Shown: piece by piece, positions 52,060-64,000 of the stretch
Position numbering within the stretch: the stretch's first letter is position 1
How the letters are laid out: every line of letters starts with the position of its first letter
Sequence record: PZ445443.1
Source of the DNA: a phage
Direction: 5' to 3' (one strand)
DNA length: 64,000 nucleotides
Notes under the pieces: model-generated
Told to the model about the DNA's origin: nothing
The model's database searches: none
Seen by the model: the letters and a program-made list of their open reading frames with translations, nothing else
Translations under genes and position numbers: made by a program

Positions 52060-53325
52060 TTATTCCAGCACCTCCCAAGTTTCTGGATTAAGATTGCGGA
52101 ATGCGATACCCACAGGGAATTGAGGCACACCGTCCACCGTACGCTGTTGGAATTTTATCGTGATAAATTTGCCAACATATGAGCAGCATTTTTCGTAGTT
52201 CCTTACGGCAAAAGTGCCTTTCATTTTGCATTTGCATTGTGTCCCATCTTTCTCTTCGCAGATAAGAACACCTTCTCCGTTTTTATCTTTTTCAACACCG
52301 ATCACTTTTGCTTCAACATCGGTGAACAGTTTCCACTTGAGCAGATCAGTAGAGCGTTGACCGTATTCGTAGGTGCCACGGAAGTTACGAATAATAGATC
52401 CTTCATAACCTTCCTGCATGTACTGTCCGATGGAGTTGCGAACCTCTTCCTCGTTGTAGGCGATCTTGAAAGGAACACCCTCGACGTTGGTGAGATGGTT
52501 AACTTCACAATAATCAATAACTTCCTGAAGATTTGTGGCCCGATCTTCCCAGCGATGGATGCAATCAGGAACATCGAACACCATCAGTTTCAGGTCATAA
52601 GAGCAGTAACCTCCATACCGATCAGAATCACGGACAGGTTCTTCATAAACCGGATGATCAACCTTGTTGAAGTCTTTCCAGGTCTCCTCTCCGGCCTTGA
52701 TCGCTTTCTCACGGCGTTTTATGTCTGCCATGAAGTCCTTATCAATTTCTTTCTCAATGTCTTCCAGACTACGCCATTTCTTAACGAGGGAGGTTATTTT
52801 CTGCAACGGTAGACCGTGAATGTAGAACTCTCCATCAAATTCATCAAAGCCTGTTTCTTCATGCAGGTCTTGTAGCTCACGGAGGATGTTACCTTTCGGC
52901 TCATACACTTTGTTACCGCGAGAGATGAATTTAGGTACACCGTCTACGAATTTGACAAAGCAACGGTTCCCGTCAAGTTTGTGTTGCAGGTGGCATGGAT
53001 ACACAATAGCGTGTGGTTTTTTCGAAGCATCTTGCGCCAGCATAGGTGAAATGTCAATGGCCTCAAGGTCTTCGACATTTTCTTTGTAACCCAGCCGGAC
53101 TTGCTTTTCCCATTTAGACTGCGCCTCTAAAACAGCTTGTTCTTCTGCTGTAGTTTCGTTGGATCGCCCGATGTTTTTGGCTTCACATTTTGTGGTTTTT
53201 GATTGTACAGCGCCACCAACCCTGCCGAACACAACAATAACCTCGTTGCCGCTTGTATCGACTTTCCACATCTGGATGGACCCGTCTTTATTGCGAGCAT
53301 AAAGTGTTGTTTTGAATTGATGCAT
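52060..53325 (-). CDS. ATP-dependent DNA ligase
   Basis: Adenylation motif KLDGNRC (KxDG); 421 aa. Confidence 0.75.
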   Translation of the reverse strand: MHQFKTTLYARNKDGSIQMWKVDTSGNEVIVVFGRVGGAVQSKTTKCEAKNIGRSNETTAEEQAVLEAQSKWEKQVRLGYKENVEDLEAIDISPMLAQDASKKPHAIVYPCHLQHKLDGNRCFVKFVDGVPKFISRGNKVYEPKGNILRELQDLHEETGFDEFDGEFYIHGLPLQKITSLVKKWRSLEDIEKEIDKDFMADIKRREKAIKAGEETWKDFNKVDHPVYEEPVRDSDRYGGYCSYDLKLMVFDVPDCIHRWEDRATNLQEVIDYCEVNHLTNVEGVPFKIAYNEEEVRNSIGQYMQEGYEGSIIRNFRGTYEYGQRSTDLLKWKLFTDVEAKVIGVEKDKNGEGVLICEEKDGTQCKCKMKGTFAVRNYEKCCSYVGKFITIKFQQRTVDGVPQFPVGIAFRNLNPETWEVLE

Positions 53326-53889: not shown

Positions 53890-53952
53890 AACTTTCTACC
53901 TCACTTGCATACTTTCCGAAACAAGTAAAGCCGGGTAATCCCGGCTATGTTG

Positions 53953-54666
53953 TTAAATATACTCTGTTACATCCTTGAAGCTCGAAGGCTTCATGATCTT
54001 ACCTTTACTGTCAAGGAATATGATAACTTTATTACCGTTGTAGAATTCTTCCTTAGCAACAAAACCTTCATATCGACCATCAAAGCGTCGCTCAAGATCT
54101 TTAATCTCCAACTCGATGAGTTGTTCAGCAGGCATATCTGCACTGGCACCGTGTGAATACCGTAGATGATTTACCCGTGCAAACTTGCTGTCATTCGATT
54201 TGAGAACCTTACGCATCATCCCGCACACATCTCCGCGAAGCTGGAACAGCAAAGCTGTTGACAACTCTGCTAAGCGGTAAGCGGATGCTCTTTGCTTAGA
54301 GGTGTTTTTCGCAGCGATCAGTGTATCATAGAACTCACCGATCTTGAACTTAAGATCATGCGGATTATCAAACAGGTCTGACCACATTTTGTGATTATCA
54401 TTAACAAGATAAGCGGCATAACTTGTGACAACGTGAAGATCGCAGGCCTCTTTTAGCAGGTGATCTCCGCCATCACCTTTCTCCAGCTCTTCCAAAACTT
54501 CATTGAACTCTTCCTCAATGAAGCTAAGCTGTAATTCGAACGGTGTGTATGATTTTTTCACTTTAGCTGCCACACGGTTCCAGTTTTCCACCCAGTTGGC
54601 AGACCAAAGGTAGTTTTCAGGCTGGGACAGTTTTTCAAGGTTGTCAATTAATTTAGTATTCAGCAT
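53953..54666 (-). CDS. hypothetical protein (possible MazG-like pyrophosphohydrolase segment)
   Basis: EEEFNEVLEEL...LKEACDL weakly resembles the MazG EExxE motif. Confidence 0.45.
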   Translation of the reverse strand: MLNTKLIDNLEKLSQPENYLWSANWVENWNRVAAKVKKSYTPFELQLSFIEEEFNEVLEELEKGDGGDHLLKEACDLHVVTSYAAYLVNDNHKMWSDLFDNPHDLKFKIGEFYDTLIAAKNTSKQRASAYRLAELSTALLFQLRGDVCGMMRKVLKSNDSKFARVNHLRYSHGASADMPAEQLIELEIKDLERRFDGRYEGFVAKEEFYNGNKVIIFLDSKGKIMKPSSFKDVTEYI

Positions 54667-54679
54667 TAAAGGTCTCCTT

Positions 54680-55441
54680 TTAAAGTTCCATAAAGTTTTC
54701 TACGGTCTCAATGAATGTTTTATCAGAGAAAGCGTCAACCGCCCCGTTAAACCAAACCGGGATGCCGCGATCCTCGTACTGGTAAATATCACTACGTGAA
54801 ATGCCATTCTCCTCTAGATGCTGTGAGTCGTATTTGTTAACGATCAGCAGTTTGGTGCCCTTATTGCAGGCAGGGAATAGCTCCCAGTTAAAATTGATAA
54901 CTGTGTTGGAACACCCTACAAGGATAACCATATCATTGCTTGTAAGAGAAGTCAACAGGTCATACATGTCTGTATACTTCGGAGCTACTTCTCCGAAGAA
55001 CACCACATTAGGTTTAACCCAGGTATACTTTCCTGCATCTACCTCAGAGTATCCAATGTCCTTAATGACGTCACTTCCTTCATCGTCCTCATAGACTATT
55101 TCTGGCAAATACCCGTGAACATGTAAAATATCTTCATGTTTTACACCAGCACGCTCCAGCAAATCATCTACATTGGTGGTAAGGTTGATCACACGACCAG
55201 ACCAGCGGGAATACCACTCAGCGATCCGAAGATGTGCAAGGTTAGGCTCAACACCGCCTAGAGCTACACGACGTGCATTGTAAAAGTCATGCACCTTGTA
55301 GTAGTTCTTGGCAAAGGTGTGGATGTTGCACACCTCATCGATGCTGAAATTCTCCCACATTGCAGTGCTACCAGATCGGAAAGTGGGAATACCAGATTCA
55401 GCGCTCAAACCAGCACCGGAGATAATAATCAGTCGTCGCAT
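54680..55441 (-). CDS. Sir2-family NAD-dependent deacylase/ADP-ribosyltransferase-like protein
   Basis: N-terminal NAD-binding motif GAGLSAESGIPTFRSG. Confidence 0.75.
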   Translation of the reverse strand: MRRLIIISGAGLSAESGIPTFRSGSTAMWENFSIDEVCNIHTFAKNYYKVHDFYNARRVALGGVEPNLAHLRIAEWYSRWSGRVINLTTNVDDLLERAGVKHEDILHVHGYLPEIVYEDDEGSDVIKDIGYSEVDAGKYTWVKPNVVFFGEVAPKYTDMYDLLTSLTSNDMVILVGCSNTVINFNWELFPACNKGTKLLIVNKYDSQHLEENGISRSDIYQYEDRGIPVWFNGAVDAFSDKTFIETVENFMEL

Positions 55442-55449
55442 AAGTGTCC

Positions 55450-55800
55450 TCAGTAGATGTTTTGTTTAATCTCTATTCCAAACTTTTTAAACGAGTCAGC
55501 TGCAAGCATGAATTTACGAGCCGCTGATGGGTTAGAAGTATGCACGAAAATCTTCACGTTGTCAACTACAGGGGGCTTACCAAATACAAATTTTTCCTCC
55601 AACATAGATAGGCAATCGTACCCTTCGAACACCTCTCCAAGGTCGTTGTCCATGTGCCACTCAGAAACGCGTCTGTAGAGCTTTCCCCTATCGTTAATAA
55701 AATCTATAAACTCGGAGGAATTCTTTAGCCAAATAGCGTCTGGGAGCCCATAATTTGACGGATCTCTCAAGTCATCCAGCCACACAATCAACTTCTTCAT
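55450..55800 (-). CDS. hypothetical protein adjacent to Sir2
   Basis: 116 aa; 9 bp from Sir2 start. Confidence 0.5.
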   Translation of the reverse strand: MKKLIVWLDDLRDPSNYGLPDAIWLKNSSEFIDFINDRGKLYRRVSEWHMDNDLGEVFEGYDCLSMLEEKFVFGKPPVVDNVKIFVHTSNPSAARKFMLAADSFKKFGIEIKQNIY

Positions 55801-56732
55801 TGCATATAGTTCTCGTTGTGGAAATAGTAATCAAGTATCTCACGGCGTTCCTGCTCCAGGAGGCAGTTCCACACATCTTCTGTGTAATTGTTACGAATGA
55901 AGTTTACCATGCCGTAAAACTCTTCGTCAACACGTTTAAAGATATCATCATCCCAAATCTTCCAAGCTTTACCCCTCATTACGGCCTTCCGTGCCAGGTA
56001 GTATGGAGACTTGATCTTCAGCCGCAGGTCATAAGGGTAGTAAGGCTTACGGATCATATACCCTTCGCCCCTTGTTTCTGCGGCTAATTCTTTTGCATAG
56101 CTGAACGGGATTTCACGCACAGTGTGAGGACGTTTTGCACCAAGGTATTTGGCAATCCCATCTAAAGCTGCTTCTGGTAGCATTATTCCAGAATCATTAT
56201 ATCTGCAACCTATCAAATATGCGCCATGGTCTTCTTGAACAATATGCGGATCTGAAGGGTGACAAATTTCAAACATGAATGTCATGTTTTCATTGCCCAT
56301 AACCTTCTTGATAAGATCTAAATTACCACATTGCTCTTGGATGGTTTCCTTTGCAAGGTTACAATATGGAGAATCAAGAGACCCGGTTGTTGAGAACAAT
56401 AGGTCACCTTTATGAGATGATACCACACCAAGGAATCCGTTCTTTTTCTCTACCGCAGTCACAAGCTTATTGTCAGGCAGGTTGGTGGAGTTTTCTCCCA
56501 AGTTAAACACTTTTGTGAAGGGCCATGCCACAACATTTCCTTCATTACCTACAACAATGCCTCGGCACTCCAGTAAACGAGGGGACAAATGCCATAAATT
56601 GTTGTAAAATACTTTTCTAGCATATTTATAGATCTTTAACCCGAGATCTGGGTAATACCTACTGGTTACAAGACCTTTGTCAACTAGGTCGTCTGCATTA
56701 AAATACTTCATTATACGTTCCTCATTTGTCAT
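55797..56732 (-). CDS. Rnl1-like RNA ligase
   Basis: Nucleotidyltransferase motifs: I EKKNGF, IV GEGYMIRK, V LRLKIKSPYY. Confidence 0.55.
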   Translation of the reverse strand: MTNEERIMKYFNADDLVDKGLVTSRYYPDLGLKIYKYARKVFYNNLWHLSPRLLECRGIVVGNEGNVVAWPFTKVFNLGENSTNLPDNKLVTAVEKKNGFLGVVSSHKGDLLFSTTGSLDSPYCNLAKETIQEQCGNLDLIKKVMGNENMTFMFEICHPSDPHIVQEDHGAYLIGCRYNDSGIMLPEAALDGIAKYLGAKRPHTVREIPFSYAKELAAETRGEGYMIRKPYYPYDLRLKIKSPYYLARKAVMRGKAWKIWDDDIFKRVDEEFYGMVNFIRNNYTEDVWNCLLEQERREILDYYFHNENYMQ

Positions 56733-56832
56733 TTTGTCAGTCTATCCTGCCACACAAATAACCTAGTGTCAACACTTGAAATTAACAAAACAGTCAGGTA
56801 TACTACCGTTGAAATTAAAACGGAGGGTCACT

Positions 56833-57243
56833 ATGTCTAAAATGCTATATATCGTGCGTGGTCTACCAGGGTCTGGCAAATCAACACTGGCAAATGCGCT
56901 ATCTTTAGAGGGTCTGTATCCACATTTTGAGAACGACATGTTCTGGTATGACGATGACGGCAATTACAACTGGGATGCAAGTAAAGTAACACTCGCAGCA
57001 AAATGGTGCAAAGATAACGTAGAAGATATGATGCGTATGGGATACGACCGTATCGTGGTAAGTAATACGTTTACAAAAGAAAAACATGTGCAGGAATATG
57101 TTGACATGGCAATCAGTCATGGGTATAGTTATACCGTGATCGTGGTTGAAAACCGCCACGGTAATAAAAGCATTCATGATGTTCCAGACAAGGTTGTGGA
57201 TCGTATGGAACGCCAGCTTAAAAACTGCATTAAACTTAAATGA
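56833..57243 (+). CDS. P-loop polynucleotide 5'-kinase-like protein
   Basis: Track start 56776 trimmed to ATG 56833 with GGAGGG RBS; Walker A GLPGSGKST. Confidence 0.5.
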   Translation: MSKMLYIVRGLPGSGKSTLANALSLEGLYPHFENDMFWYDDDGNYNWDASKVTLAAKWCKDNVEDMMRMGYDRIVVSNTFTKEKHVQEYVDMAISHGYSYTVIVVENRHGNKSIHDVPDKVVDRMERQLKNCIKLK

Positions 57244-57250
57244 GGAATGT

Positions 57251-57805
57251 ATGAAATACTTTGTAACAAGCGACACACACTTTCTCCACCAGCGGGTCAT
57301 GGAGTTTGATTCATGTCAAAAACACAGATCTCAGTATGATCACAATCTTGACAGTATGAATGCGGGAATCATCGCCAAGTGGAACTCTGTTGTGTCACCT
57401 GCAGACACTGTGTTCCACTTGGGAGATATTGCGTGCACCAATGATAAGAATATCAACAACTTACTTCCAGATATTCTAAATATGTTGAACGGACATATTA
57501 TTCTTGTTCGTGGCAACCATGACACAAGGACGACTGTCAGAATTATGAAAGAGTTCGGTCATGAGGTTGTAGATTATTACGAGCTTCGCCACAACAAGAA
57601 TTTGATCTGTATGAGCCATTACCAGTTTGCAAAGTGGAACAGAAAGCCTCACGGATCAGTCCAACTGTTCGGTCATGCTCACGGAACCACACAACAGTTG
57701 TTTGGCAGGCAGCTTGATGTCGGTTGGGATGTGTGGGGGAGACTCTTACCATTAGAAGAGGCATACCGTATTGCAATGAGTTTTGATATTGACAGCAGGG
57801 AGTAA
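57251..57805 (+). CDS. calcineurin-like metallophosphoesterase
   Basis: Track start trimmed to ATG 57251; motifs DTHF, GDIA, GNHD. Confidence 0.65.
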   Translation: MKYFVTSDTHFLHQRVMEFDSCQKHRSQYDHNLDSMNAGIIAKWNSVVSPADTVFHLGDIACTNDKNINNLLPDILNMLNGHIILVRGNHDTRTTVRIMKEFGHEVVDYYELRHNKNLICMSHYQFAKWNRKPHGSVQLFGHAHGTTQQLFGRQLDVGWDVWGRLLPLEEAYRIAMSFDIDSRE

Positions 57806-57852
57806 TCCCTGCTATTTTAAAGAAAATTGCCACACAAGGAGAATCAGGAGAT

Positions 57853-58203
57853 ATGAAAGATGGGGATAAGCTGCTATATCTTAAAGTCCCCCTTGAAATA
57901 CTATCTATGTCAAAAGTTTTGAATGACACAACTGGGGAGGTTGTTGTTCTTGACTTGTATGACAAGATCGTATACTGCTACCTGCACAACTGGTATAAGC
58001 TTGGAGGAAATTCACGCTTCACACCAAGCACAAGGAAAATTGCAGCAGATGTTGGGATAAAGAAAACAAAAGCAGCAGCGTGCGTTAAAACTTTAGAATG
58101 TGCAGGAGTGGTTGAAACATCCACACAAGGGAGAGGTAAAAGATGCACATTTTCCAAAGTTTTGCCACCAGAAGAAGTTATTCGGATGTCAACAACTGGT
58201 TAG
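57853..58203 (+). CDS. putative HTH DNA-binding protein
   Basis: ATG with CAGGAG RBS; HTH-like STRKIAADVGIKKTKAAACVKTLECAGVVE. Confidence 0.5.
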   Translation: MKDGDKLLYLKVPLEILSMSKVLNDTTGEVVVLDLYDKIVYCYLHNWYKLGGNSRFTPSTRKIAADVGIKKTKAAACVKTLECAGVVETSTQGRGKRCTFSKVLPPEEVIRMSTTG

Positions 58204-58278
58204 ACCAGTAAAAAACTTAAATATCTGTACTATAAGGATTCGTATGTTTTATGTTCGCCATGGAACGGATACTATTAA

Positions 58279-58362
58279 CTGTCCGTGATACGGACACTAC
58301 TGTCCGTCACGCGGACACATCTGCCCGTAATACGGACACTAACTGTCCGTGATACGGACACA
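58279..58362. repeat. array of four tandem palindromic operator-like sites (GTCCGT-N3-ACGGAC) at 21-22 bp spacing
   Basis: Cores at 58281, 58302, 58323 and 58345; copies 1 and 4 perfect, 2 and 3 one mismatch. Confidence 0.6.
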
Positions 58363-58500
58363 TAAAGAATATAACTAAAATAACTAAATAATAAAAAATA
58401 AAAGATCTAGTACTTATGGTACTAAGTACATATACTTAACTTATGTAGAATATACTAGATCCTAAGTACCATGTTTTAAATTTATTACTTACTATGGACA
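58363..58500. promoter_or_regulatory. AT-rich region with nested inverted repeats
   Basis: About 85% AT; inverted repeats AGATCTAGTA/TACTAGATC and ATGGTACT/AGTACCAT. Confidence 0.4.
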
Positions 58501-58790
58501 GTGTCGGCCCTTCATTGGCACTCGCCTACGAGGGGCGAGATGCCGGGCCTCCTTGGTGCACACAATAACAGAAGTGCATACATGCAGGTCTGTTAACATG
58601 TGTGGGAGCGAAGCGATAGCGCAGGCCAAAGGCCGAGCACTGATGTGGACCACCGACGAAAGCTTGCCAGCGCCGTAAGGAGTCGGTTGAGAGTCTCCCG
58701 CGCGAGCTTGGATGAAGTTTATGTGTGGAAACTGACAAGAAGGCCCCTAAATCGCTCCACAGCTATATAAACTATACCAGGTAATGCAAT
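58501..58790. other. GC-rich ORF-free island A (candidate structured RNA or protein-binding region)
   Basis: Locally high GC in an AT-rich genome; hairpins visible; only low-complexity ORF lacking RBS. Confidence 0.35.
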
Positions 58791-58864
58791 CGCACCAGTT
58801 TGATAGAAAAGCTCGTTACAAAGCGATACAGTGAGTTTTTCTATAACTTGAAGAGGAGGCAGTT

Positions 58865-59443
58865 ATGGGTTCACGCAAAGATGACCGTGAAAAGATTGCA
58901 AAACGTTATCAGAATGAAGAACAGATGGAGAAAACTTTCAAGTGGAAGCCCGGTTTCCAGCGTAATCATTCTAACGCTCGTGATCGTAAGCATCCGGATA
59001 AGTGGCTAACACCGCCAAATGATGGCATGCAGGTTGGGGATGAGAAGGAGATGTCGCCTGGAAAAGATGGCAACTACATTCGCACTAAGGACGCTGGTCC
59101 AAAGGATGACAGCTATCTTGTAGATAAGGTTCTTGATGGTATCAATGTAGATGTTGACACTGCACGAAACCTTTTTCTTGGGTGGTATCGCACAGGTTTT
59201 TTCGACATCAAGGCTATTCGTCGTGTTTGTGATATTAAAAAGTCTGCATATGATGACGACTCGTTACATCGCACCCTGAGACAATATTCAGAAAGATATG
59301 GTCATCCGGTTATCACTCTTGACGATGTTAACGAAGTGATGTATCATGCAGAGGTTGTTGCAGGAAGATTTGGTGATGCATATCTTGATATCCTTTCTGC
59401 AAAGGATGAGGTAATGTTAAATAAGATTTACTATGAACGCTGA
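58865..59443 (+). CDS. hypothetical protein
   Basis: ATG with GAGGAGG RBS; 192 aa. Confidence 0.55.
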   Translation: MGSRKDDREKIAKRYQNEEQMEKTFKWKPGFQRNHSNARDRKHPDKWLTPPNDGMQVGDEKEMSPGKDGNYIRTKDAGPKDDSYLVDKVLDGINVDVDTARNLFLGWYRTGFFDIKAIRRVCDIKKSAYDDDSLHRTLRQYSERYGHPVITLDDVNEVMYHAEVVAGRFGDAYLDILSAKDEVMLNKIYYER

Positions 59444-59453
59444 GGGGCGATTA

Positions 59454-59642
59454 ATGAACAACCCGGTAGCAAAGAACTGTAATAAGTTCAACAAGTCTGC
59501 AATTCACACTGACAGGAAAAAGAGCTGGTCTCCTGACATTGACGAGGAGCTTGAGAGTTACTTTGAAGACCTGGTCACCAATGCAGATGAGGTTGCGATT
59601 AAAGAATACGCAGACAGGAAGGATAAGGCCGGAATCTGTTGA
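59454..59642 (+). CDS. hypothetical acidic protein
   Basis: Track start 59433 trimmed to ATG 59454 with GAGGGG RBS. Confidence 0.45.
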   Translation: MNNPVAKNCNKFNKSAIHTDRKKSWSPDIDEELESYFEDLVTNADEVAIKEYADRKDKAGIC

Positions 59643-59667
59643 CAAAAATAGTGTTACCTGATAAGAT
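59639..59667 (+). promoter_or_regulatory. sigma70-like promoter (TTGACA-17-TAAGAT)
   Basis: Hexamers upstream of CDS 59719. Confidence 0.45.
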
Positions 59668-59718
59668 CTGCAATATGATGTGATGCAATTTTAACTTACG
59701 AGGTCTACAGGTAATGCT

Positions 59719-59961
59719 ATGTTTAAGGTTAAGCTCGTTTTTCGTTCCATGAATGAGGATTATTTAGAAGATGAAGGTGAATTTCGTGCACTGGATGATG
59801 CAATAGATTTTGCCAACGACTTAGCTTGTATGAATACAGGTTATGGGCTATGTTGTTGGGATGGTGGTGTTCAGATCGGTGATAGCAAGATCTTCTACTT
59901 CTACCCTGAGCCTGATAACAAACAAATTAAGTATGTTTTATTTATTTGTGCTTTACAATGA
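59719..59961 (+). CDS. hypothetical protein
   Basis: 80 aa ORF. Confidence 0.5.
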   Translation: MFKVKLVFRSMNEDYLEDEGEFRALDDAIDFANDLACMNTGYGLCCWDGGVQIGDSKIFYFYPEPDNKQIKYVLFICALQ

Positions 59962-60040
59962 GGTTGTTTTCGTGTATCATGATGAATATCCAATTTAAAG
60001 ATGAATTTGATGGCTTTATCTCTGGATGCTTTGAAACAGG

Positions 60041-60250
60041 GTTCGGAGAAGACTGAGTTCCCCTTAGAGGGCTTGATAGTGCACCACACTTAAAATGGTA
60101 GGGGCAGCCAGCACATGACGATGTGACCCCAGCCAACCTGTAACAAGGTCGAGCCGAAGCGCGGGTAATAGGCCTCTGGTAACCCACTTGTTGGGTCTTG
60201 CTGGTCCAGGACGCTGGACAAGTCGCAGGGAACACCACCCTGCGGCGAAC
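60041..60250. other. GC-rich ORF-free island B (candidate structured RNA)
   Basis: High local GC; hairpins CACAT-gacg-ATGTG, GTCCAG-gacg-CTGGAC, GCAGGG-aacaccac-CCCTGC; overlapping minus ORF looks spurious. Confidence 0.35.
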
Positions 60251-60296
60251 TTGACAATCAGTATTTGCTATGATAAAATCCACCTATCACGTGATA
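60251..60296 (+). promoter_or_regulatory. sigma70-like promoter (TTGACA-18-TAAAAT) with perfect palindrome TATCACGTGATA at the start site
   Basis: Palindrome at 60285-60296 lies between -10 element and RBS of CDS 60308. Confidence 0.45.
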
Positions 60297-60307
60297 ATGG
60301 AGGAAAC

Positions 60308-60646
60308 ATGGCGGATACAACTAAAAAGCGTCGCCGTAGAGGCAGACCTCTGAAAGAGGAGTCCAACGCCATTCAGCTAGAGAAGAACATCCTTGATATG
60401 AAGGAATCTTTTATAGCGATGGTTCCAGAAGCTCACAAAGTTTTAAGAGAGCTGATGTTGGACCCGAAAACCAAACAAAATATTCGTCAAAGCATTGCAG
60501 AGTATGTTCTTGATAAGGCAGACCGAATGCAGGAAGAATATGATGAGATGTTTGGTGAAGAGGAAGAGGTGGTAGTGGAAGAGGCTGAAAAACCAGCACC
60601 TTTTATGCCATTTACTACAGAAATACAGCCTGTTAGCAATAGATAA
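60308..60646 (+). CDS. hypothetical protein with basic RRRRGRP N-terminus and acidic C-terminus
   Basis: Track start 60188 trimmed to ATG 60308 with GGAGG RBS. Confidence 0.55.
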   Translation: MADTTKKRRRRGRPLKEESNAIQLEKNILDMKESFIAMVPEAHKVLRELMLDPKTKQNIRQSIAEYVLDKADRMQEEYDEMFGEEEEVVVEEAEKPAPFMPFTTEIQPVSNR

Positions 60647-60655
60647 AATATTTTC

Positions 60656-60684
60656 TTGACAAACTTTGCTTAACAGTGTAATAT
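60656..60684 (+). promoter_or_regulatory. sigma70-like promoter (TTGACA-17-TAATAT) for tRNA cluster
   Basis: Hexamers about 60 bp upstream of first tRNA. Confidence 0.5.
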
Positions 60685-60742
60685 TGTAAACATGGTCTCC
60701 CACCTTTTCTGGCGGCTAAGGTGTAAAAGAAAGCCACCCAGT

Positions 60743-60817
60743 GCCCTGTTAGCTTAGTGGATAAAGCAGCGGCCTTCTAAGCCGTTGACACTGGTTCGAG
60801 TCCAGTACGGGGTGCCA
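60743..60817 (+). tRNA. tRNA-Arg (anticodon TCT), CCA encoded
   Basis: Hand-folded cloverleaf: 7-bp acceptor stem (two G-U), anticodon loop CTTCTAA, T-loop TTCGAGT. Confidence 0.7.
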
Positions 60818-60821
60818 AATT

Positions 60822-60908
60822 GGGGAGTTATCCCGTAGAGGTAGCGGTGTAGACTGTAAATCTATTGTCATTGCGACTCGGGTGGTTCGACTCCACCACT
60901 CCCCACCA
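60822..60908 (+). tRNA. tRNA-Tyr (anticodon GTA), long variable arm, CCA encoded
   Basis: Perfect 7-bp acceptor stem GGGGAGT/ACTCCCC; anticodon loop CTGTAAA; T-loop TTCGACT; 87 nt. Confidence 0.7.
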
Positions 60909-61022
60909 AATTTATATTTTTAGATGCATAAATAATACAGATAATGGCATTGATATTTATCGTCGTTTATACTAGTCACTAACTGCTCGAAAATCAGTGT
61001 CATTATCAGTATAATTTATAAA

Positions 61023-61113
61023 GGAGGGTAGGGAGCAATGGTGCTCAAGCGGTCTTGAAAACCGTCCCGTTGAGGATGACTCGATGATGGTTCGATTCCA
61101 TTACTCTCCGCCA
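61023..61113 (+). tRNA. tRNA-Ser (anticodon TGA), long variable arm, CCA encoded
   Basis: Acceptor GGAGGGT/ACTCTCC; anticodon loop CTTGAAA; T-loop TTCGATT; 91 nt. Confidence 0.65.
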
Positions 61114-61211
61114 CATTGTTGACCTTGTAATTAAGCGAAAGTCGGAAGCAGAACCGGATTATCAAATGTTACAGTCGTCATCGCCGACTAGCAACATGGT
61201 CAACATACTGA

Positions 61212-61308
61212 GCTAGGTAAGCCCTTTGGCAAGGGCGAGGATTTTTAATCCTGAAAATAGACGAGGTAGTCGTTGAATACATAGGTGGTTCGATTCCATC
61301 ACCTAGCA
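61212..61308 (+). tRNA. atypical tRNA-like gene (possible UUU anticodon, oversized variable region, no encoded CCA)
   Basis: Perfect acceptor stem GCTAGGT/ACCTAGC and T-arm GGTGG-TTCGATT-CCATC; anticodon arm non-canonical (AGGA-TTTTTAA-TCCT); 29 nt between anticodon and T stems; 97 nt. Confidence 0.4.
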
Positions 61309-61315
61309 CCTTTTT

Positions 61316-61391
61316 GCTGATGTAGCACAATCGGTAGTGCAATTGATTTGTAATCAATAGGTTGTAGGTTCAAGTCCTGCCATCAGCACCA
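61316..61391 (+). tRNA. tRNA-Thr (anticodon TGT), CCA encoded
   Basis: Perfect acceptor stem GCTGATG/CATCAGC; anticodon stem ATTGA/TCAAT with loop TTTGTAA; T-loop TTCAAGT. Confidence 0.75.
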
Positions 61392-61392
61392 A

Positions 61393-61467
61393 GGCCCTGT
61401 AGCTGGAAGGTTCAAGCAAGCGACTCATAATCGCCAGACGGTGGTTCAATTCCACCCAGGGCCACCA
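61393..61467 (+). tRNA. tRNA-Met or tRNA-Ile2 (anticodon CAT), CCA encoded
   Basis: Perfect acceptor stem GGCCCTG/CAGGGCC; anticodon loop CTCATAA; T-loop TTCAATT. Confidence 0.7.
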
Positions 61468-61478
61468 AATAGTAAATA

Positions 61479-61555
61479 CTCCGCGTAGCTCAGCTTGGTA
61501 GAGCGCCTGATTTGGGATCAGGAGGTCGAGTGTTCGAATCACTCCGTGGAGACCA
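61479..61555 (+). tRNA. tRNA-Pro (anticodon TGG), CCA encoded
   Basis: Acceptor CTCCGCG/CGTGGAG; anticodon stem CCTGA/TCAGG with loop TTTGGGA; T-loop TTCGAAT. Confidence 0.7.
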
Positions 61556-61601
61556 CTTTCAGTTATACTTTAAACATATATAAACAAAAGGAACCTTTAA
61601 A

Positions 61602-61871
61602 ATGTATACACTTAAAATTGTAGAGCGTGTAAATCCAACTCATACCGTAGATTTTCGTGACGATTTCAATCCTCTGGCTGTAAATCTTCGAGAGTCATAT
61701 CATGAACTCAGCTGCGATGCAGTGGTGGTCTTTTTTGAAGACAACTCTGAAGGGGCGGTAGCTTGTGTTGTTGATAGTGAGCAGAAGTTTTATATTTACA
61801 GAGATGTAGATGCATACTTGATGAATGAAAATGCAGTTACTGTTAGAATCATCCACCGAGTGCCTCGATAA
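61602..61871 (+). CDS. hypothetical protein
   Basis: ATG with AAAGGAA RBS; 89 aa. Confidence 0.5.
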   Translation: MYTLKIVERVNPTHTVDFRDDFNPLAVNLRESYHELSCDAVVVFFEDNSEGAVACVVDSEQKFYIYRDVDAYLMNENAVTVRIIHRVPR

Positions 61872-61925
61872 GTATTAGTCTCCTTTTAGTTAGTTTCGAT
61901 CTATTTAGGTTACTCAATTTTAACC

Positions 61926-61958
61926 CGCCCCGTTAGCTGTATAGCTGCGGGGTTTTTT
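61926..61958 (+). terminator. intrinsic terminator
   Basis: CCCCG...AGCTgtatAGCT...CGGGG hairpin followed by TTTTTT. Confidence 0.55.
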
Positions 61959-61976
61959 CGTTTCTGGAGCCTTAAA

Positions 61977-62375
61977 ATGATTTCAGTTTTAACATGGCTG
62001 AGCAGGTATAAAGGGATCATAAAAGGTTTAGTTTTTGCAGCTGCGATAGGTACAGCTTATCTTGGGGCCGTGTATTGGTTTAACTCTAAGCTTAATGATG
62101 CCTACCAAGAAGGTGTGTCAGCAACAGAGTTAAAGTGGGAACGGATCCTTGATCAGCAACAAAAGCAGGCCGACAAAATTAAAATGGGCCACGCAGAGGA
62201 GGTTAAAAACCTTGAAAAATCCCTTTCTGATCTGCAGGATAAATTAAATATAGCTGAGAAGGCAGGTAAAGAAAAGCAGATTATCTACCTCCAGTCACCT
62301 GAAGGCAAGAAGTCAACACTTCCTGATCAGCTTATAGATATTTATAATGAGAGTATCAATCAGGAGGATCAATGA
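61977..62375 (+). CDS. i-spanin-like protein (Rz-type)
   Basis: N-terminal TM helix then charged coiled-coil region; overlaps downstream lipoprotein gene. Confidence 0.5.
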   Translation: MISVLTWLSRYKGIIKGLVFAAAIGTAYLGAVYWFNSKLNDAYQEGVSATELKWERILDQQQKQADKIKMGHAEEVKNLEKSLSDLQDKLNIAEKAGKEKQIIYLQSPEGKKSTLPDQLIDIYNESINQEDQ

Positions 62376-62659
62376 GAGTTGCTACACTGTTTATTGTGTG
62401 CTTGTTATTATGTGGGTGTGCAACCAGCGTTGAGAGAGAATACAAGATTGACCCTCCTGATGTAGGAAGGTTGATTGTTAAACCCCCGGAAGGTGCCATG
62501 AAACCACCTGCTAAAGCTATGCCTTTGAAGAAAGGTGCGCCAGATGCAGTGAATTCTGGCATTATGAGGGATAATAATCTGTCTTGTAGCAATGATAGAG
62601 CTAAATTGATCATTTTGCAAGACTATATTAGAACACTTTTTCCAAAGGAGAGAGGTTAA
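62372..62659 (+). CDS. o-spanin-like outer-membrane lipoprotein (Rz1-type)
   Basis: Signal peptide with lipobox LCGC; proline-rich; ATGA overlap with upstream gene. Confidence 0.5.
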   Translation: MRVATLFIVCLLLCGCATSVEREYKIDPPDVGRLIVKPPEGAMKPPAKAMPLKKGAPDAVNSGIMRDNNLSCSNDRAKLIILQDYIRTLFPKERG

Positions 62660-63087
62660 TGTCTAAGATTTACGGACCGTGTTCTGAAAAGCAGAAGATG
62701 ATCCTAGAAAACGATGCAGATATTTTGGTAATCGGCGGTGCCGCAGGGTCTGGCAAGTCGTTCCTCTTGCAATTGATGCCACTTAAAATTATTGATGACC
62801 CCCACAGCTCTGTGGTTATGTTCCGAAGAACAACCCCACAGTTGGAAGGTGAGGGTGGATTATGGCCTAAAGCAGTAGCTATTTATAGTGATCTGCCTGA
62901 AAACATTAAGCCAAAGTTTAGAGAGAAGGATCATAAGTTCATTTTTCCACGGTTTGATCCGAACACTGGCAAGTGGGATAGAAGCAAAAAGGGAGCTGTT
63001 GTAAAATACTGCCACATGGAGTATGTACAAGATAAGCTTAACCATCAGGGGCTTGAGTACACCATGGTTTGCTTCGATGAGGGTTAA
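62659..63087 (+). CDS. terminase large subunit, N-terminal ATPase segment (interrupted after Walker B)
   Basis: Walker A VIGGAAGSGKS preceded by QK-ILE-DA; ends at Walker B-like MVCFDEG followed by stop. Confidence 0.5.
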   Translation: MSKIYGPCSEKQKMILENDADILVIGGAAGSGKSFLLQLMPLKIIDDPHSSVVMFRRTTPQLEGEGGLWPKAVAIYSDLPENIKPKFREKDHKFIFPRFDPNTGKWDRSKKGAVVKYCHMEYVQDKLNHQGLEYTMVCFDEG

Positions 63088-64000
63088 TTTGTAGCTCTCG
63101 TAAAACCTCCCTAATTGCGGGGAAATCTTTATTATTGACACCACCAACCTGTCATGGTAACATGACAGAGGCTTCGAAGAGAGATCGAAGGTATGGTAAC
63201 AGTGTGTTAATTTAGATAATCCGCAGCGAAGCATCCGAGAGGATGAACGTTCAACGACTAGTCGAAAGACGTAGAATCAAGCGATTCGAAACGGGAGGGT
63301 GAATGTGTAATACTAAAAAATGTATGGATTGCCAAAGAGTTCTACCTATTGATGATTTCTTTTTATCATCTAAGAGCAAGGATGGATACTCAGGTACATG
63401 CAAGGAATGCTATATGTACTACAGGAAGGGTGGATCTCGTAAAAACAAAAATATGGTTAAGAGAGATGATGCAGCATTGTTTATTCAAGACTTGCTGAAG
63501 AAAGGTGAACTTTTTGAATGCAAATCTTGTCATGAAAGTATGCTCGCTGATAGTTTTTACACAAAACGTGACTATGGTAAAGTATATCTGGTTACGAACA
63601 GGTGTAAGATGTGTGAAAAGTTTTATCAGATTGAGAAGAAATTTCACATAACAAAAGATGAATACTATCGTCTACTCTCAGATCAAGATCATAAGTGTGC
63701 CATTTGTAGAATATCCCTTGATGAGTATAGGACGCAAGGGTATAGAGATTTCTTTTGTGTTGATCATGACCATAAAACTGGTGCTGTAAGAGGGTTGCTT
63801 TGTGATAAATGCAACAGAGCTTTAGGTTTCTTCCAAGAGGATGAGGAAACTATTCTTAGAGCGGCAGAGTATTTACACATTCATAAGATATAGTCTGGTC
63901 TGCATGGAGACATGCAGCTGCCTGAAAATGGCGGGGCAAGACTAGCGACCTTGCCCGAACATAAACGACACAATTCGAATGGGAGCAGATAGACTATCTG
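63088..64000 (+). mobile_element. intron-like insertion (probable group I intron with homing endonuclease ORF), 3' end beyond window
   Basis: Interrupts terminase ORF at a conserved site; structured flanks (TAGTCT...AGACTA, GGGCAAG...CTTGCCC pairings); free-standing nuclease ORF with own RBS. Confidence 0.4.
63303..63893 (+). CDS. endonuclease VII-family homing endonuclease
   Basis: ATG with GGGAGGGTG RBS; motif CVDHDHKTGAVRGLLCDKCN; N-terminal Cys clusters. Confidence 0.6.
   Translation: MCNTKKCMDCQRVLPIDDFFLSSKSKDGYSGTCKECYMYYRKGGSRKNKNMVKRDDAALFIQDLLKKGELFECKSCHESMLADSFYTKRDYGKVYLVTNRCKMCEKFYQIEKKFHITKDEYYRLLSDQDHKCAICRISLDEYRTQGYRDFFCVDHDHKTGAVRGLLCDKCNRALGFFQEDEETILRAAEYLHIHKI

Follow-up and report, generated by a model that had tools for sequence, protein, structure and literature searches.

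What does a phage gain from carrying, within a few kilobases, genes that resemble an RNA ligase, a P-loop kinase and a metallophosphoesterase? The question is raised by positions 55450 to 57805 of a 64,000-nucleotide stretch of phage DNA (sequence record PZ445443.1; the whole stretch is hereafter called the window). A sequence-only reading had proposed that three adjacent genes at this locus supply the activities needed to heal and seal broken RNA, as a bacterial Pnkp split into separate genes and located next to a tRNA cluster. The window DNA is that of an rV5-like Vequintavirus, a phage of E. coli: the 2.9 kb around these genes are 99.8% identical to Escherichia phage rV5_ev146, and the same query matched 119 phage records, 117 of them with at least 80% query coverage and nearly all of them Vequintavirus. 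Overall, we consider it likely that the locus serves the phage as an accessory module for healing and sealing broken RNA, and that it comprises a fourth gene, overlooked in the sequence-only reading, which encodes a cyclic-phosphate processing Receiver (cREC) domain protein.

Family assignment and catalytic residues of the module proteins

The three open reading frames (ORFs) were found at the positions where the sequence-only reading had placed them, with the motifs it had named. The motif residues correspond to invariant columns in alignments of 44-45 homologues and, because they are invariant across so many sequences, the motifs are not chance matches.

The ligase gene (55797..56732, minus strand, an ORF of 311 amino acids (aa)) was assigned to the Rnl1-type ATP-dependent RNA ligases by Pfam PF09511, phrog_562, a profile match to T4 Rnl1 and its fold. 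Its motifs are ECRG at residue 55, KKNG at 96, EGY at 223 and LKIK at 238, and residues R57, K96, N98, G99, E223, G224, K239 and K241 are invariant among 45 homologues. The protein matched the Pfam family RNA_lig_T4_1 (PF09511) at 7.8e-15 (55.8 bits, cut-off 28.3) and phrog_562 at 1e-66, and it scored 38.3 bits against the NCBIfam equivalog TIGR02308, whose cut-off is 242.25. It would be a member of the Rnl1 family, yet not an equivalog of T4 RnlA. Single-sequence PDB searches returned nothing useful for either the ligase or the kinase, and profiles were needed. With the ligase family profile, T4 Rnl1 (2c5u) was the best solved sequence match (8.8e-13); in this alignment, which ends at motif V, KKNG falls on KEDG and the other motifs on 'iEGYV', 'FKIKS' and 'lECRGi'. 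The AlphaFold2 (AF2) model has a predicted local distance difference test score (pLDDT) of 91.4, and a Foldseek search with it placed fungal Trl1 ligase domains, T4 Rnl1 and archaeal Rnl3 on top, all with template modelling (TM) scores of about 0.6. After motif V, the model contains approximately 65 helical residues, with helices at 243-254, 270-282, 285-290 and 293-306. The true start of the ligase is probably Met8 (56711), since a GAGGAA Shine-Dalgarno sequence is found there, homologues open with MKF..., and residues 1-7 have a pLDDT below 50. The description of this gene as an Rnl1-like ligase is therefore borne out both by sequence, where T4 Rnl1 ranks first among solved proteins, and by fold, where the Trl1 ligase domains and T4 Rnl1 match best.

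The kinase gene (56833..57243, plus strand, 136 aa) encodes a minimal P-loop kinase, assigned to the polynucleotide kinase (PNK) clade by AAA_33 (1e-10), phrog_2071 (3e-58), phrog_505, the 'polynucleotide kinase' family (5e-10), and PDB profile matches. The GLPGSGKST motif begins at residue 10. The Walker A lysine, the catalytic aspartate about 20 residues downstream and the lid arginine are all present, and G15, K16, D35, N78, T79, R108 and H109 are invariant in alignments of 44-45 homologues. The best full-length PDB matches of the family profile were Pnkp1 (5.7e-5), PSTK (8e-5), T4 PNK (1.2e-4) and CthPnk (9e-4), with adenylate, shikimate and gluconate kinases ranking below them. An hhalign comparison with the T4 PNK kinase domain gave a probability of 96.6% and placed K16, D35 and R108 on T4 residues K15, D35 and R122; the T4 sequence used is consistent with the PDB matches 1ly1 and 1ltq. 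The kinase model has a pLDDT of 83, and its highest TM-scores (0.65-0.66) were to CthPnk, T4 PNK and PSTK. In the 136-aa protein, Pfam found only the AAA_33 kinase domain, with no 3'-phosphatase domain of the HAD (DxDxT) type. The family is very large, with members of about 130 aa. On the basis of these comparisons, the protein is probably a member of the polynucleotide kinase clade and may act as a 5'-OH kinase. The profile results favour polynucleotide and tRNA kinases over adenylate or dNMP kinases; they placed neither the kinase in the dNMP/adenylate kinase family nor the ligase among unrelated nucleotidyltransferases. Hidden Markov model searches and structure prediction, both run on the ligase and the kinase, thus uphold their assignment to RNA ligases and to the PNK clade.

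The phosphoesterase gene (57251..57805, plus strand, 184 aa) encodes a binuclear metallophosphoesterase of the aq_1665 (PDB 1XM7) branch, as judged from Metallophos and Metallophos_2 (1e-6 for the latter), phrog_547 (2e-51) and a PDB profile. It carries the motifs SDTHF at residue 7, LGD at 57, GNHD at 88 and GHAHG at 141, and the metal ligands D8, H10, D59, N89, H90, H123, H142 and H144 are invariant among 44 homologues. Every metal ligand is thus kept, in line with the calcineurin-type phosphoesterase expected from the motifs. The match to 1xm7 covers nearly the full length (2e-10 with the single sequence, 1.4e-28 with the profile), and the next PDB profile matches were GpdQ, YfcE, a PdeM-type metallophosphoesterase (MPE) nuclease, MJ0936 and Rv0805. 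The same profile, built from 44 homologues, found neither lambda-phosphatase nor the CthPnkp phosphatase in the PDB even at E <= 10. This, together with the 1.4e-28 match to aq_1665, argues for a different branch from the Pnkp phosphatase. Moreover, motif II reads LGDIAC, without the arginine of GDxxDR. We accordingly describe the protein as a probable binuclear metallophosphoesterase on a branch apart from the Pnkp enzyme. The family occurs in 1357 phage records, and a literature search on aq_1665, COG4186 and 1XM7 returned no report on function.

The cREC gene (55450..55800, minus strand, 116 aa) was identified by Pfam PF20274 (1.3e-14, 55.1 bits, cut-off 27) and phrog_1479 (7.5e-35). At its start, the gene and the ligase stop overlap by 4 nucleotides (nt), and it is predicted to be translationally coupled to the ligase. 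The cREC domain was defined by Iyer et al. (PMC7824862) as a divergent Receiver domain, a predicted cyclic-phosphate processor found in operons with RNA ligases; the definition also rested on its association with enzymes that process NAD+ and ADP-ribose.

Conservation of the gene linkage

We then focused on whether these genes keep company elsewhere. To that end, 80 viral loci were gathered via the kinase alone, with kinases 42-51% identical to that of the window. The loci were searched with the three family profiles, neighbouring ORFs were clustered, and cluster representatives were confirmed by Pfam; genes were counted when on the same strand as the kinase and within 4 kb of it. The phosphoesterase was present in 57 of the 80 loci, an RNA ligase in 47 (Rnl1-type in 29, PF09414-type in 19) and cREC in 16. 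When only the 48 loci with 4 kb or more on each side were considered, 33 contained the phosphoesterase, 33 a ligase, 27 both, and 14 cREC. Gene order varied: kinase-phosphoesterase, phosphoesterase-kinase, ligase-phosphoesterase-kinase, phosphoesterase-ligase-kinase and phosphoesterase-kinase-ligase were all seen. In a phAPEC8-like phage the three genes form one contiguous run, and in PAK_P1, whose kinase has no annotation beyond hypothetical, they lie close to one another. The adjacency noticed in the window therefore extends, as linkage, across diverged phages.

The bacterial counts, taken over the whole locus and on both strands, were very different: in 80 bacterial loci the phosphoesterase was found four times, the Rnl1-type ligase twice and cREC never. 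For the phosphoesterase, the difference between viral and bacterial loci gave a Fisher p = 2e-19, a significance that is overstated as the loci are phylogenetically non-independent. No conserved neighbour of the bacterial kinase emerged, the most frequent reaching at most 10 of the 80 loci (Bacteroidota, Leptospira, Vibrio and others). Altogether, a linkage that outlasts both reordering and the exchange of one ligase family for another is strong evidence of a shared function. Further neighbours of the viral kinase were also recorded, namely a NUDIX hydrolase gene within 4 kb in 24 of the 80 loci, 20 of them with the phosphoesterase (e.g., L006-L009 and L029), and two families of uncharacterised ORFs, one of about 100 aa in 28 loci and the other of about 428 aa in 19.

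These data bear directly on the possibility that the genes are mere neighbours working independently, with, for example, the ligase acting in tail-fibre attachment in the manner of T4 gp63, the phosphoesterase against cyclic-nucleotide immune signals, and the kinase on a small molecule. A 'tail fiber attachment catalyst' label on phrog_562 and on many GenBank records speaks for this possibility, as do the cyclic-nucleotide and glycerophospho-diesterases among the PDB neighbours of the phosphoesterase (Rv0805, GpdQ, MJ0936), the phages in which the phosphoesterase occurs with neither kinase nor ligase (e.g., Enterococcus phage KEN11), and the lone kinase of bacteria. Nevertheless, if the genes had no function in common, it would be difficult to account for a same-strand linkage that survives reordering and the substitution of one ligase family by another.

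Transposon data from a close relative argue in the same direction. Phage Bas54 (MaxBurger, MZ501093) has the same layout, and its proteins are 97-99% identical to those of the window. In the HIDEN-SEQ transposon study of Bas54 on E. coli K-12, the ligase, kinase and phosphoesterase, together with a Sir2 gene that follows cREC, were non-essential, and cREC was intermediate. The Bas54 ligase was hit at 56 of 60 TA sites; by contrast, insertions into T4 rnlA's N-terminal catalytic domain were not tolerated in that study. As the Bas54 ligase is dispensable, an essential assembly role is unlikely for the rV5-type ligase, and we regard independent action of the genes as unlikely. Non-essentiality on K-12 is also what an accessory or counter-defence function predicts.

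Proposed role in RNA repair

In the reading that we favour, an RNA-healing and -sealing module, metal-independent host RNases (PrrC, RloC and similar anticodon nucleases, HEPN or Cas13-type enzymes, toxin RNases) would cut tRNA or other RNA to produce ends with a 2',3'-cyclic phosphate and a 5'-OH, which must be healed before a ligase can join them. The 136-aa kinase would phosphorylate the 5'-OH, and the metallophosphoesterase, probably aided by cREC, would open the cyclic phosphate and remove it, or remove a 3'-phosphate, so that a 3'-OH results. The Rnl1-type ligase, adenylylated on Lys96, could then reseal the break. We infer all of these enzymatic activities, as well as how phosphoesterase and cREC share the work and which RNA is the natural target, from the family assignments, the intact catalytic residues and the conserved gene linkage. 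Not every cut would call on the whole set: OLD-like Toprim nucleases leave a 3'-OH and a 5'-phosphate, and a single such nick is resealed by a ligase alone (PMC12445682), so that the type of nuclease decides which parts of the module are needed.

Several observations weigh against this reading. RNA-end phosphatases are not among the nearest characterised relatives of the phosphoesterase, which comprise phosphodiesterases and a DNA nuclease. The kinase matches characterised PNKs modestly (E = 1e-3 to 1e-5 with hmmsearch), and Foldseek E-values for its model do not separate PNKs from other small-molecule kinases. The kinase family is, in addition, common as a lone gene in bacteria (Bacteroidota, Leptospira, Vibrio), and is hence not intrinsically tied to RNA repair. 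The C-terminal helical domain of T4 Rnl1 (residues ~255-374) confers tRNA specificity, and most of it appears to be absent from the AF2 model of the ligase. No measured activity was found in the literature searched for the module proteins, any aq_1665-type phosphoesterase or any cREC protein. Moreover, the Bas54 genes named as anti-defence genes in the text of the HIDEN-SEQ paper are two others and not those of the module, and the comparison rows listed for bas54_0208-0211 show no depletion.

A second alternative starts from the DNA nuclease among these relatives. The kinase and phosphoesterase might heal DNA ends for the phage ATP-dependent DNA ligase (52060..53325), making 5'-OH/3'-phosphate nicks or breaks left by host or phage nucleases ligatable, in which case the 'RNA ligase' would be nearly irrelevant. 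The DNA ligase gene lies 2.5 kb away on the strand of the ligase operon, T4 Pnkp works on DNA besides RNA, and the phosphoesterase weakly resembles the ligase-associated DNA-damage endonuclease PdeM (TIGR04123, 2.6e-4; 6nvo, 3e-3). However, the PdeM match is far under the family cut-off (20.5 bits vs 150), and the recurrent viral partner is an RNA ligase, from two families and in 47 of the 80 loci, whereas a DNA-ligase cluster appears in only six viral loci, all of them close relatives. This possibility is accordingly very unlikely.

Comparison with known RNA repair systems

A close parallel to the proposed RNA repair module is the system of T4, where Pnkp (PseT) and Rnl1 (RnlA) counter PrrC: the heal-and-seal logic and the ligase family are the same, both systems are phage-encoded, and the window kinase shares the constellation of P-loop lysine, aspartate and lid arginine of T4 PNK. 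Nevertheless, the two differ in several respects. The candidate 3' healing enzyme is here a binuclear metallophosphoesterase separate from the kinase, whereas that of T4 is a HAD/DxDxT phosphatase fused to it; the window ligase has 304-311 aa and a short helical C-terminal tail, against 374 aa in T4; the window module adds a cREC protein; and the Bas54 ligase is dispensable, while part of T4 rnlA is essential.

The bacterial Pnkp-Hen1 systems (Clostridium thermocellum Pnkp; Capnocytophaga Pnkp1-Rnl-Hen1) combine the same three chemistries, and Pnkp1 and CthPnk are among the profile matches of the kinase. In contrast to bacterial Pnkp, the window module consists of separate proteins encoded on two strands, with an Rnl1-type ligase and a phosphoesterase of the aq_1665 branch. 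The proposal of a split bacterial Pnkp did not survive the comparison. It is contradicted by the placement of the phosphoesterase on the aq_1665/1XM7 branch, with the lambda-phosphatase and the CthPnkp phosphatase unmatched, by relatives that vary the gene order and interchange ligase families, and by the lack of an annotated Hen1 nearby. Fusions of kinase, phosphoesterase and ligase were not found among the 120 + 89 + 120 homologues listed, as judged by length, and no Hen1 was found among the genes annotated up to about 6 kb away in phage 241Ecol014PP, whose whole genome was not scanned. 'Split Pnkp' is thus best taken as an analogy, not as descent.

The window module fits the phage RNA repair systems that Iyer et al. 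2021 (PMC7824862, citing Burroughs & Aravind 2016) predicted, in which an ATP-grasp ligase and a PNK are combined with phosphoesterases including cRec. That survey describes phage cRec in operons with Rnl1 and Rnl2 ligases and polynucleotide kinases, and reports 'calcineurin-like' phosphatases in some phage RNA-repair systems. It dealt with jumbo phages and found such phosphatases to be rare, whereas here, among phages that are non-jumbo or known from metagenomes, no partner of the kinase family is as common as the aq_1665-type phosphoesterase. The closest solved relative of this phosphoesterase, Aquifex aeolicus aq_1665 (1XM7), is a metallophosphoesterase from structural genomics. GenBank annotation points the same way: the module genes are named RNA ligase, polynucleotide kinase and phosphoesterase in more than 100 records, with the ligase label often extended by 'and tail attachment protein', the kinase called polynucleotide kinase or AAA ATPase, and the cREC gene named 'cyclic-phosphate processing domain-containing protein' in one record. 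This kind of module is therefore already predicted in the literature and annotated in GenBank; the sequence-only reading mentioned neither the existing annotation nor the wide spread of the module.

Operon layout and downstream genes

The two halves of the module, a leftward ligase operon and a rightward pair of kinase and phosphoesterase genes, are separated by a divergent intergenic region of 100 nt (56733..56832). This region contains a sigma70-like site at 56776-56804 (plus strand) and a GGAGGG Shine-Dalgarno sequence at 56823-56828, both of them consensus matches only. The phosphoesterase starts 7 nt past the kinase stop on the same strand. From this shared region, the kinase and phosphoesterase would be co-transcribed rightward, and the ligase and cREC co-translated leftward. 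The nearest relatives outside the rV5 group (L011, L030 and L050) carry phosphoesterase, ligase, cREC, kinase, Sir2 and, farther away, MazG on one strand and, because they are colinear, the divergent rV5 layout is best explained by a local inversion. The region 56733-56832 also coincides with the minimum of the cumulative GC skew (at about 56 kb) and with a switch from leftward to rightward genes (~54000-58000).

Downstream of cREC, within the leftward gene string, lies a gene for a Sir2-family NAD-dependent enzyme (54680..55441, minus strand; Pfam SIR2 5.5e-27, phrog_2162 3e-109). The protein resembles CobB-type deacylases (NF001753, 1.5e-35, below cut-off). The Sir2 gene is followed by a feature at 53929..54666 (minus strand) consisting of a gene for a MazG-like nucleotide pyrophosphohydrolase (53953..54666; phrog_671, 5.8e-22) and a terminator-like hairpin (53929-53946; seven pairs, six of them G-C), which would end the leftward unit. 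Vequintavirinae-like relatives (L011, L022, L030 and L050; 4 of the 80 viral loci) were the only ones with Sir2 near the module, and MazG was syntenic with the module in these same loci and in L063. Whether Sir2 belongs to the module is uncertain, and likewise for MazG; we rejected both as core parts, as their co-occurrence is limited to close relatives. A phage-borne defence system, or a defence-type Sir2, was also considered and rejected, since none of the six proteins had a meaningful PADLOC match.

The Sir2 gene leads to a third alternative, related to fungal and plant Trl1, which is a top fold match to the ligase and also combines kinase and ligase. In Trl1, these activities share one polypeptide with a cyclic phosphodiesterase of the 2H family, and sealing depends on a 2'-phosphate that stays behind and is then taken off by Tpt1. 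A Trl1-like or NAD-linked pathway, in which cREC or the phosphoesterase gives a 2'-phosphate/3'-OH end, the ligase seals while leaving the 2'-phosphate or another adduct, and Sir2 with NAD+ clears the adduct or reverses RNA ADP-ribosylation, draws on the equally good fit of the ligase model to fungal Trl1 ligase domains and T4 Rnl1, on the position of Sir2 after cREC in apparently one leftward unit, and on the association of cREC with NAD+/ADP-ribose-processing enzymes and RNA ligases (PMC7824862), but it is highly improbable given that Sir2 accompanies the module in 4 of 80 loci, all Vequintavirinae-like and perhaps sharing it by ancestry, and that no Tpt1/KptA-like gene was seen nearby. Among the viral loci, L003 and L171 (PAK_P1) have a phosphoesterase-ligase-kinase block followed by a ribose-phosphate pyrophosphokinase gene, and L003 also has NAPRTase (NAD salvage), which may point to a recurring connection of RNA repair with NAD metabolism. 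A specific NAD-linked route can be drawn, with cREC as 2',3'-cyclic phosphodiesterase, the phosphoesterase as RNA 3'/2'-phosphomonoesterase, and Sir2 clearing a 2'-phosphate or ADP-ribose; we give it a very slim chance. If true, this route would differ from T4 Pnkp/Rnl1 as well as from bacterial Pnkp/Hen1 and would occur widely among large virulent phages.

The tRNA cluster and other observations

We then turned to the tRNA genes that the sequence-only reading had placed beside the module. Seven were predicted by ARAGORN at 60743..61555 (plus strand), and Rfam confirmed six; they comprise Arg(TCT), Tyr(GTA), Ser(TGA), one undetermined, Thr(TGT), Met/Ile(CAT) and Pro(TGG). The cluster is near the module and yet not adjacent to it, as it lies 2.9 kb downstream with several ORFs in between. 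A two-pronged counter to tRNA-targeting defences, formed by the module and the tRNA cluster, is plausible, although inference only. Phage Thr(UGU) tRNAs have been reported to rescue infection from OLD, and the cluster of the window includes Thr(UGU). An Rfam scan of 55000-64000 returned only tRNAs.

One member of the cluster, at 61212-61310, is an atypical tRNA-like gene of about 93-99 nt, which ARAGORN could not assign (4-base 'atcc' anticodon) and to which Rfam gave 35.5 bits. Inspected by eye, it shows a UUUUUAA anticodon loop with UUU as the anticodon, a long variable arm and an acceptor stem of 7 bp that starts at 61214, and its Bas54 orthologue is annotated as tRNA-Lys (AAA). tRNA-Lys(UUU) is a target of PARIS. 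It is the target of PrrC as well (PMC1484252), and the Lys(UUU)-like gene may represent a nuclease-resistant substitute.

Between the module and the tRNA genes, a helix-turn-helix protein (57853..58203) matches PHROG 'replication initiation protein' families (phrog_12838, 5e-80). Just downstream of its gene, in an ORF-poor stretch, 58276-58361 holds four tandem repeats of 21-22 nt (TAACTGTCCGTGATACGGACAC and variants), each with the palindrome GTCCGT-N4-ACGGAC; these could be origin iterons or operator sites. Lastly, two records labelled 'Campylobacter phage C12/C14' (MG065635.1 and MG065653.1) carry DNA 98% identical here to that of E. coli rV5-like phages, and phage C14 has an identical phosphoesterase protein; either their host label is wrong or the samples were contaminated, probably.

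Significance

For the window itself, these findings are confirmatory and not surprising, as the genes were so annotated and the class of system predicted; it is the breadth of the module that is noteworthy. The combination of the kinase, an aq_1665-type phosphoesterase, an RNA ligase and an optional cREC is found in many genera of cultured phages, such as Vequintavirus, Phapecoctavirus and Pakpunavirus, and some phages of these genera are in therapy collections. Defences that cut tRNA (PrrC, RloC, Cas13, PARIS, OLD and retron-linked nucleases) are increasingly recognised, and to our knowledge T4 provides the sole phage RNA repair system with experimental support. A function of the module in RNA repair would give roles to two uncharacterised families, the aq_1665-type phosphoesterases and cREC, and could explain differences in host range against RNase-based immunity.

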